A program made the position numbers and the translations under genes. From contig RSEE01000093.1 in assembly GCA_003971905.1 (NCBI GenBank), forward strand, positions 62,001-126,000: a stretch of DNA of 64,000 nt, in the 5' to 3' direction. Below the pieces are notes generated by a model. It was given only the letters and a program-made list of their open reading frames with translations. It searched no databases and was not told the origin of the DNA. Shown here piece after piece: positions 48,681 to 50,709 of this stretch (its first letter is position 1; the number at the start of each line of letters is the position of its first letter). Origin of the DNA: Moniliella sp. 'wahieum' (taxonomy: Eukaryota).

Positions 48681-50709
48681 CTAGACGGCCATCTTCATTC
48701 AATCTTGGGCCAGGTCTTGTAGTTTTCAACGATAAAGTCGTCCGTCTTGAACCATCAATCGACTCGACCGCCCGGGCAAACTTGAGGGTTGGGAAGGGGT
48801 AGGGGTCGCGCTTGAGCTGCTCCTTGAGCGGCTCGACTGGTCCAGGTACACATGCGCATCGCCCAGGACGATCGTCAGCTCGCGCGCGCGCAGGCCGGTG
48901 ACCTGGGCCAGCATGTGGGTCAGCAGCGCATACGAGGCAATGTTGAACGGCACCCCGAGCCCCAGGTCGGCGGAGCGTTGGTACATTTGGCAGCTTAGCT
49001 CGCCCGTGCCCGGACCGTTGGGGTGCGAAACAAAGAACTGGGCCAGCACATGGCAGGAGGCAGCGCCATCTTGGCGTTCTGCCGGGGTTCCACGCCGACA
49101 GAAGGATCCGCCGGTCGGTCGGGTTGGACTTGATCGTCTCCACCACCTGGGCCAACTGGTCACACCCCTTGCCCGTGTAATCCGCATCGGCCGACGTGTA
49201 GGGCGCATCAAAGTGGCGCCATTGAAAGCCATAGACCGGACCCAAATCTCCCTCGCGGTAGGGCAGTCCCCGCTTGCGCAAAATTCTTCGTGCCATTGCC
49301 ATCCCAAATGTGCACACGCGCTGGGCCAACTTGGTCGCATCCGTCGAGCCTTCCACGAACCACAGCAGCTCCTCCAGCACGCCCCGGAAAAACACACGCT
49401 TCGTGGTCAGCAGCGGCAAGCTGCCGTGGGACAGATCAAACTTCATGGGCGTCGGCGCAAACAGGGCGAGCGTTCCATGACCCGTCCGATCCGCCCGCTT
49501 TTCGCCGGCATCCAAGAGGCTTGGACGAGGGCTTGGTACTGCCGCTCCCCCGGGTTGGGCACGTCGGGATTCGCGCCGAGCACACGGCCATTGAGGCAGT
49601 GCAGCACCGCATCGCGCAGCCCAGCCGTGCGCAACGTGCCGGCAATCAACGGTTGGACAAGCCAATGGGAGCATTGCCCTTGGCCAGCTTGATTTGGTCC
49701 TTGTTCGGCTCGCCTGGCAATTGGGCCATTCCATCTTGCGCACTAAACAGCGAGCCAATCGTAGGTTCGTCGAAACATTTGTGCGCATACGACAGAATGG
49801 CGATCGCACCCGCATCCACAGCAAAGCGTTGGCCGAGCCACAGGGGGAGACCAAGCCAGCGCGCAATAAAGCACCTGTAGAGCACGCCCAATCAGCTTGC
49901 ACGAAAATGACGAAAAAAAAAGCACTGAGGCAGAGAACGTACCGGTTTAAAGTGCCCATGAGCCACGATCAAAATGTCGGCAATGCGATGACCCTTCTTG
50001 TCAGCATCCAGCTGGACGCCATCATCTTGGAGGTACCCATGAGCGGCGGCACGCTGCAACATACGAATCTGGTGAATGATGCTGTCGATCCGAGCTGTCA
50101 CTGCCTCGGCACTTTCGCCGGGCAAGGAGGGGTCATCGGGGTCGTCCGGGGTGCCCTCGTGCCAGATGTCCCAGTTGGCATAGCCAGGCACCGCGTGCTC
50201 GGCCGGCGTCTTGCCCTCGAACAAACCATAGTCCCATTCGCGACACTCTTGCCGCACCTCGGCCGGAGGAATCTTGTCGCGCGCCGATTGGGGCAGATGC
50301 TCCAAAAGCAGTTGCAGAGTGTGCTGCGAACGCCCTCGGGGCGAAACAAACACGTACCCAAGGTGGTGGGGGGTGAGAAGAGCAGAGACATTGTCCTCCG
50401 GCCGCGGATCGTCGCCGACCACGTACGGGCCGAGGTGCCGAACCAGTTCCTCGCCGTGGGGAGTCAGGCGCAAGTTGGTGCGACCAGTGTGCTGCCCCGA
50501 TAGCGACCACGCCGTCTCGCCGTGCCGGAGAGAATGACGCGCGGCATGGGCGCGCCCGCGGGCAGCTTGCGGCACGCCTCGGTGCCAATTTCCGGATGAG
50601 CGGCCAGCAGCTCCTCGGCCGTCGGCGCATGGCCATCTTTACGGAGAGGAATGAACTCCTGATCAGGAGGGTAGACGGGCGCCGATGCGCGGGTGTAATA
50701 CGTAGCCAT
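48681..50709 (-). CDS. Fusion of a SHB17-like histidine phosphatase (N-terminal) and thymidylate synthase (C-terminal)
   Basis: Phosphatase: [56 protein letters not shown] (intron 49875-49942). [82 protein letters not shown]-stop at 48681. Confidence 0.88.

Follow-up and report, generated by a model that had tools for sequence, protein, structure and literature searches.

In the DHFR-TS proteins of protists and plants, some of which have solved structures, another enzyme and a linker stand in front of a C-terminal thymidylate synthase (TS), and DHFR uses the dihydrofolate that is made by TS. The Hal3 protein of Schizosaccharomyces pombe is a fusion in which a functional TS follows a PPCDC core at the C-terminus, according to passages in PMC6695811 and PMC9604783 that refer to Molero et al. 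2013. The TS of Cryptococcus neoformans (PDB 2aaz) is monofunctional, with a chain of 317 residues, and Shb17 of yeast (YKR043C; PDB 3f3k, 3lg2 and 3ll4/3oi7) stands alone as well, its solved chains having 265–292 residues. Shb17 feeds the pentose phosphate pathway according to a passage in PMC8151747, and fructose- and sedoheptulose-bisphosphatase activities are ascribed to it in a passage of PMC4535450. Here, we describe a gene of Moniliella sp. 'wahieum' (assembly GCA_003971905.1, contig RSEE01000093.1) in which a His phosphatase of the Shb17 type is followed by a complete TS. It occupies 50709..48681 (2029 nucleotides) on the minus strand of the window, the 64,000-nucleotide stretch that was analysed (contig positions 62,001 to 126,000), and all positions below are those of the window. 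As in DHFR-TS, another enzyme and a linker precede the C-terminal TS, but Shb17 and TS, unlike the DHFR-TS pair, share no metabolite. As far as the passages on S. pombe Hal3 go, that protein is alike in being a lineage-restricted fungal fusion with TS placed behind an enzyme of an unrelated pathway; it differs in that the partner is a decarboxylase of the coenzyme-A pathway, not a phosphatase, and in that it belongs to an ascomycete genus, not to basidiomycetes.

We propose, with a probability of roughly 0.85, that the locus is one gene encoding a fusion protein, that its frame breaks are artefactual and that the fusion has a single origin in the ancestor of the Ustilaginomycotina. The gene would have two exons and specify a single polypeptide of about 650 residues, made up of an Shb17-type His phosphatase, a flexible linker and a ThyA-type TS, and the fusion would have been formed once from that ancestor's own Shb17 orthologue and kept since. 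The junction of the halves carries a TGA (49646-49648) and a frame break in the assembly, whereas the nearest relatives are open there: in the Logan open reading frames (ORFs) P0071 (385 residues) and P0070 (162 residues), phosphatase tail, linker and TS follow one another without interruption. An earlier note on this DNA, made from the letters alone, had placed phosphatase and TS in one frame and attributed the TGA to a C lost at aacc(c)gttg. Both statements agree with the relatives, as the aligner puts the break near 49653, in a run of two C (49651-49652) that stands three bases ahead of the TGA, at a site where P0071 has Lys-Pro-Leu-Leu; an extra C in this run would restore the Pro codon and thereby join the two frames. 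An intron in the linker was also considered as a way to remove the TGA and was rejected, since no usable GT..AG pair spares the conserved E-x-Q-Y and the linker shows conservation at the protein level in three lineages.

If the TGA were real, TS would have to be expressed as a separate gene from its own downstream start. The presence of the TGA in the assembly fits this, but the TS frame is open for 96 nucleotides upstream of it, up to 49742, and the window translation has no Met between the TGA and the ERQY motif of TS, just as the earlier note had stated. Conservation at the amino-acid level moreover crosses the junction, with 37 of 48 residues identical to P0071 across 49661-49518. The note had named orthologues that are always separate genes as an outcome that would count against a fusion; instead, the two close relatives P0071 and P0070 and 22 more distant homologues all have a single frame. 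At the level of sequence, the two-gene reading is thus already contradicted by the relatives, and we practically discount it.

Frameshift-aware alignment to the nearest relatives places ten breaks in the gene (near 50531, 49653, 49516, 49316, 49279, 49082, 49056, 48838, 48752 and 48699), and a phase mismatch between exon 1, at its end (AAA, 49946-49948), and exon 2 implies an eleventh. Each of the ten is a skip of 1-2 nucleotides, nine fit one missing base, and neither in-frame nonsense changes nor larger deletions are seen in the frame-aware alignment. With the frames followed, the window is identical to P0071 at 312 of 373 residues (84%; exon-2 tail, linker and TS), to P0004 at 203 of 263 (its residues 113-383) and to P0070 at 106 of 142. 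Apart from the window, this lineage is represented only by the Logan ORFs P0004, P0071, P0073 and P0070, at 70–79% identity in local BLASTP and 75–84% in frame-aware alignment. Unrelated genes of the window are broken in the same way, as the earlier note had held for the window as a whole: in a transaldolase gene the frame switches at about 54190 while the Pfam profile continues (115 to 115), and a copper amine oxidase and a 2-hydroxyacid dehydrogenase are also split between frames at contiguous profile positions. The copper amine oxidase (55393-56975, minus strand) is spread across three frames and at least four ORFs, with profile pieces 1-51, 66-149, 178-221 and 310-383, and is the clearest sign of indel errors throughout the window; the 2-hydroxyacid dehydrogenase (58940-59691, plus strand) is divided over two overlapping frames. 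Because these unrelated genes share the pattern, we take the breaks to be assembly noise, and by comparison with relatives rather than with reads, the TGA and about ten other breaks are assigned to single-base indel errors of the assembly and not to biology. A decaying pseudogene, with real breaks and with TS supplied by a second intact copy elsewhere, would account for eleven frame breaks in 2029 nucleotides; however, the uniformly small skips, the lack of nonsense changes and larger deletions, the intact conserved active-site motifs, the 84% identity to P0071 and the like damage to unrelated neighbours all speak against it, and we consider it highly improbable.

The identity of each half is indicated by profile matches, solved structures and motifs. 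The phosphatase half matches His_Phos_1 (PF00300) at 49951-50527 on the minus strand (E 3.4e-20; 73 bits, Pfam cutoff 21.7), and among solved structures YKR043C ranks first (E 1.7e-17 over 149 residues), ahead of the mycobacterial Gpm2 (3.2e-6). Its translation contains RHG, SPRGR, REWDYG..EG and AHGH, so that the motifs reported in the earlier note (RHG, SPRxR, EWDYG, AHGH) are all present, and it has RHG, SPRxR, REWxYG and W-x-I-W-x-D-G in common with yeast Shb17. The RHG, both Arg of SPRxR, the Glu of REWDYG and the HGH are kept in all 25 aligned fused proteins, and these we take to be the nucleophile His, the two Arg, the acid Glu and the second His of the active site. The likeness to Shb17 that the note had claimed is thus upheld by the top PDB match, and several stand-alone homologues are named sedoheptulose 1,7-bisphosphatase in their source records; judged by these comparisons, the phosphatase half is a member of the fungal Shb17 (sedoheptulose bisphosphatase) group. 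The TS half matches Thymidylat_synt (PF00303) in two frame pieces (E 2.3e-44 and 1.6e-28; 152 and 100 bits, cutoff 24.3), which span profile positions 10-147 and 144-221. It aligns end to end with P0071, the TS of which (residues 88-384) matches PDB 2aaz, the closest solved TS, at E 2.7e-125; the TS half of a model of the fused Ustilago maydis protein is 71% identical to this C. neoformans enzyme (template modelling score 0.93). The Cys of PCH, DRR, YQRS, the Asn of PFNIAS and DAHVY are all found in the window TS and are invariant in 25/25 fused proteins; we presume that the Cys of P-C-H is catalytic and that DRR is the Arg pair binding deoxyuridylate (dUMP). The break at 49056 falls in the Pro codon directly before that of this Cys. 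Following the break at 48699, the window TS ends in MKMAV and TAG, and MKMSV or MKMAV ends all 25 fused proteins. By these alignments, the TS half is of the ThyA type and complete.

The start codon (ATG, 50709-50707, minus strand, as for all parts of the gene) has a stop four codons upstream. It opens an N-terminal extension of 54 codons (50548..50709), which precedes Met-Pro-Arg-Val-Ile-Leu, the start used by other fused proteins; the extension is identical to the same region of P0004 at 43 of 59 residues and is absent from all 25 fused proteins of our alignment A1. Exon 1 (49943..50547) encodes the Shb17-like His phosphatase core, with RHG, SPRGR, REWDYG, the fused-type DGT stretch with a 9-residue insertion, and AHGH, as assigned by Pfam, the PDB match and alignments. 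It carries the frame break near 50531, after which the frame goes on into Arg-His-Gly-Glu-Thr, and a probable extra A at 49946-49948. The phosphatase domain is split directly behind its second catalytic His motif by a GT..AG intron of 68 nucleotides (49875..49942; GTACGT donor, CAG acceptor, branch-like CTGAT at 49895-49891), which was not in the earlier note. At the same codon, the ORF of P0004 continues into an intron of its own, and the exon-1-only ORFs P0074, P0075, P0076 and P0078, from four other lineages, stop at the same HGH-x-x-R position. The first part of exon 2 (49740..49874) completes the phosphatase with its C-terminal strands and helices and shares 80% identity with P0071 over 55 residues. 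It is followed by the linker (49548..49739), which contains the false TGA and the break in the CC run; about 64 residues were found where the note had given roughly 60. The complete TS domain (48684..49547; Pfam Thymidylat_synt and frame-aware alignment to P0071) shows ERQY, DRTG, LPLLTTKR, DRR, PCH, YQRS, PFNIASY, DAHVY and MKMAV in this order, is interrupted by 8 frame breaks and is closed by the TAG at 48681..48683. A run of 15 G lies in the 3′ flank at 48550-48564, about 120 nucleotides past the stop codon.

When the phosphatase piece was searched against longer proteins, 66 matches with E <= 0.001 were obtained among 1278 candidates, and 22 of the 66 contain both PF00300 and PF00303. Thirteen of these 22 carry names in their source records, all of them Ustilaginomycotina genera: Tilletiaria, Kalmanozyma, Sporisorium, Pseudozyma (P. 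flocculosa), Tilletia, Exobasidium, Melanopsichium, Tilletiopsis, Violaceomyces, Parajaminaea, Testicularia, Sympodiomycopsis and Thecaphora. A cluster look-up added XP_011388701.1 of Ustilago (Mycosarcoma) maydis (554 residues) and AYO41396.1 of Malassezia restricta (541 residues), both named 'thymidylate synthase', together with cluster members from U. hordei, U. bromivora, U. nuda, U. tritici, Sporisorium scitamineum, Moesziomyces, Pseudozyma hubeiensis, Meira, Pseudomicrostroma, Jaminaea and eight Tilletia species. For four species, a taxonomy check gave the classes Exobasidiomycetes, Malasseziomycetes and Ustilaginomycetes; the remaining named genera likewise belong to the Ustilaginomycotina. 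The earlier note had guessed that such architectures might already be annotated in basidiomycetes and had suggested mapping their taxonomic range. The fusion architecture is indeed already publicly annotated, simply as thymidylate synthase, and is not new as an architecture, and its named carriers all lie in this one subphylum. The U. maydis and M. restricta proteins have the same domain order, active-site motifs and DGT with a 9–10-residue insertion as the window, and their phosphatase tail enters TS without a stop. The window phosphatase piece is only 45–51% identical to the named fused proteins, and compared with U. maydis the window has a linker of about 64 rather than about 21 residues and, in addition, its 54-residue N-terminal extension. 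Hence the window gene is a real but ordinary, divergent member of an annotated fusion family, broken only by assembly errors. A full-text literature search returned no paper on a His-phosphatase-TS or Shb17-TS fusion, although papers outside its coverage or database notes could mention one.

A profile of 25 fused proteins was also run against 1.84 billion cluster representatives. Among the best 150 matches, there is only one full-length fused representative (P0261), besides the fragments P0017, P0262 and P0264 and the frame-shifted P0016. Among 34 long matches scanned with Pfam, three combine His_Phos_1 with TS, 24 are DHFR-TS, one joins thymidine kinase to TS and one is a TS with an intein, while in five TS is the sole family found. 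The last group includes P0263 (533 residues), a high-scoring candidate for a phosphatase fusion that was rejected, as a degenerate, partial TS-like N-terminal half, lacking a Cys at the P-C-H position, precedes a complete TS. In the thymidine kinase fusion, P0297 (585 residues), the partner (PF00265) is again in front. P0016 and P0215 concern records of other organisms: a protein labelled as the powdery mildew 'Golovinomyces magnicellulatus' has an N-terminal part close to the fused proteins of smuts before it runs out of frame, and a fern (Adiantum) record falls in the Meira cluster. Both look like sequence of contaminant Ustilaginomycotina yeasts in the assemblies of other organisms. The fusion family is therefore narrow in these searches and, judged by its named members, restricted to one subphylum.

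Among homologues of a length similar to the phosphatase piece, the first six matches are exon-1 pieces of fused genes, and the next are stand-alone proteins of 215-270 residues from Pucciniomycotina, Agaricomycotina and Ascomycota, 35–43% identical. A quick maximum-likelihood tree was built from 131 rows, consisting of 22 fused proteins cut to 250 residues, window exon 1, P0073 and 107 stand-alone proteins of 205-300 residues; shorter or longer matches were excluded. The 24 fused-type rows form one group (support of 88 in the Shimodaira-Hasegawa-like approximate likelihood ratio test), which is nested in a set of 44 rows (support 99) that also takes in all 8 rows of Agaricomycotina and 6 of Pucciniomycotina, a basidiomycete clade in which the other members stand alone. 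The other 87 rows stand apart, and the named ones among them are ascomycetes. This topology is consistent with one joining event, in an ancestor of the Ustilaginomycotina, between that lineage's own Shb17 gene and TS. In more weakly matching homologues of the phosphatase piece, the fusion partner is transaldolase, class I aldolase, ribose-5-phosphate isomerase, phosphoketolase or phosphomannomutase, which suggests that phosphatases of this branch usually act on sugar phosphates.

Fused and stand-alone phosphatases differ in one conspicuous stretch. In the 107 stand-alone forms, 48 columns reach a conservation of 98% or more; at 40 of these, no fewer than 90% of the 22 fused forms have the same residue, and the window retains 44 of the 46 near-invariant columns of the Shb17 family that it covers. 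The sole outright replacement is that of the Cys of D-G-C, present in 107/107 stand-alone forms and also in yeast Shb17, by Thr in 22/22 fused forms and in the window. Between this site and P-x-G-E-S stand 9–10 extra residues in all fused forms and one residue in all stand-alone forms, and yeast Shb17 is also without the insertion. The window reads E-G-T with nine inserted residues before G-E-S, which matches the fused type (D/E-G-T and 9–10 residues) of 22/22, and the stand-alone motif, D-G-C directly followed by P-x-G-E-S, is not found in it. In this superfamily such a stretch belongs to the variable cap over the active site, as it presumably does in Shb17, and a change in such a region would mean that substrate specificity may have changed. 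The AlphaFold model of the U. maydis protein, calculated from a 25-sequence alignment, has a mean predicted local distance difference test score (pLDDT) of 85.2 and a predicted template modelling score (pTM) of 0.83. The insertion is modelled with confidence (block means 91–95), whereas the linker (241-254) has pLDDT values below 50; in an AlphaFold model of P0071 the linker scores 39–55, with only three sequences covering it, so that this model says little on whether the long linker is structured. For a two-domain chain, the pTM of 0.83 hints at a defined arrangement of the modelled halves. Among the matches listed by Foldseek for the two-domain U. maydis model, only TS chains occur. Linker length ranges from about 21 to about 64 residues among the fused proteins, that of the window being about three times as long as in U. 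maydis and conserved among three relatives.

These changes bear on what the phosphatase half does. Both halves are probably active enzymes; the TS half, as a dimer, would make thymidylate (dTMP) and serve as the dTMP synthase of the cell. For the phosphatase half we lean slightly towards continued hydrolysis of sugar bisphosphates such as sedoheptulose-1,7-bisphosphate and fructose-1,6-bisphosphate. What weighs against our overall interpretation is that the Cys-to-Thr change and the insertion occur in all fused forms, so that substrate specificity may have changed, that the annotated fused proteins are themselves gene predictions, and that the gene as assembled is broken 11 times. Within the same architecture, the phosphatase half might have been re-tooled, so as to be no longer, or not exclusively, a sedoheptulose/fructose bisphosphatase; its substrate would then be a thymidylate-pathway nucleotide (dUMP, dTMP or a damaged analogue), or its role would be to regulate TS. 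The fixed Cys-to-Thr change (22/22 against 0/107) beside an insertion shared by all fused forms and the window, the modelling of this insertion at pLDDT above 90 and the hint of a fixed domain arrangement in U. maydis would all suit such a role, but 40 of the 48 near-invariant Shb17 columns are kept in at least 90% of the fused forms with only one replaced outright, and the pTM of a single monomer model is weak evidence for an interface; we view re-tooling as unlikely, if worth keeping in sight. Its more specific form, in which the Shb17-derived domain was rebuilt after the fusion, docks on TS and acts on a thymidylate-pathway nucleotide or controls TS, appears distinctly unlikely to us; if true, the rebuilt domain would be a new kind of bifunctional enzyme of dTMP homeostasis, confined to smut fungi and Malassezia. 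It is also conceivable that the fusion is an organisation of the gene only, and that processing of a precursor or an internal transcript start yields two enzymes. A linker that is predicted to be disordered in both U. maydis and the window lineage and that varies about threefold in length would permit this, yet the fixed, fused-specific changes of the phosphatase suggest adaptation to the fused state, and we consider separate mature enzymes improbable.

We return to a single polypeptide with two probably active halves. Since no metabolite is shared between the two reactions, fixed co-expression is suggested rather than channelling; the fusion would tie an enzyme of ribose supply and an enzyme of DNA-precursor supply together in expression and amount. 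Both functional ideas of the earlier note, a coupling of ribose supply to dTMP synthesis and an action on dUMP or dTMP, are still hypotheses. The free C-terminus of TS closes its active site. TS is at the C-terminus in every TS fusion encountered here (DHFR-TS, thymidine kinase-TS, PPCDC-TS of S. pombe and phosphatase-TS), and this order fits the need for a free C-terminus.

Several other genes lie in the window. The transaldolase gene mentioned above (Pfam TAL_FSA, profile 1-284 over three ORFs) is located at 53645-54756 on the plus strand, with the 5′ end of the Shb17-TS gene about 3 kb away; it encodes an enzyme of the pentose phosphate pathway and has, besides the frame break near 54190, a probable intron at about 53894-53992. 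A CoA transferase gene (36809-38242, minus strand) consists of two ORFs in the same frame, separated by a short gap that contains stops and is probably an intron, and a RhoGAP-domain gene is found at 42868-44325 on the minus strand.

The fusion provides a natural 'Rosetta stone' that ties Shb17, a little-studied enzyme of riboneogenesis, to dTMP synthesis across a fungal subphylum, which takes in the model Ustilago maydis, smuts and bunts of cereals and Malassezia, a yeast of human skin. As no paper on the fusion was found in our literature search, the enzymology of the fused protein would be new, and the fused-specific loop with its Cys-to-Thr swap offers a concrete, testable hypothesis. In its architecture, the essential TS of these fungi differs from the human enzyme.

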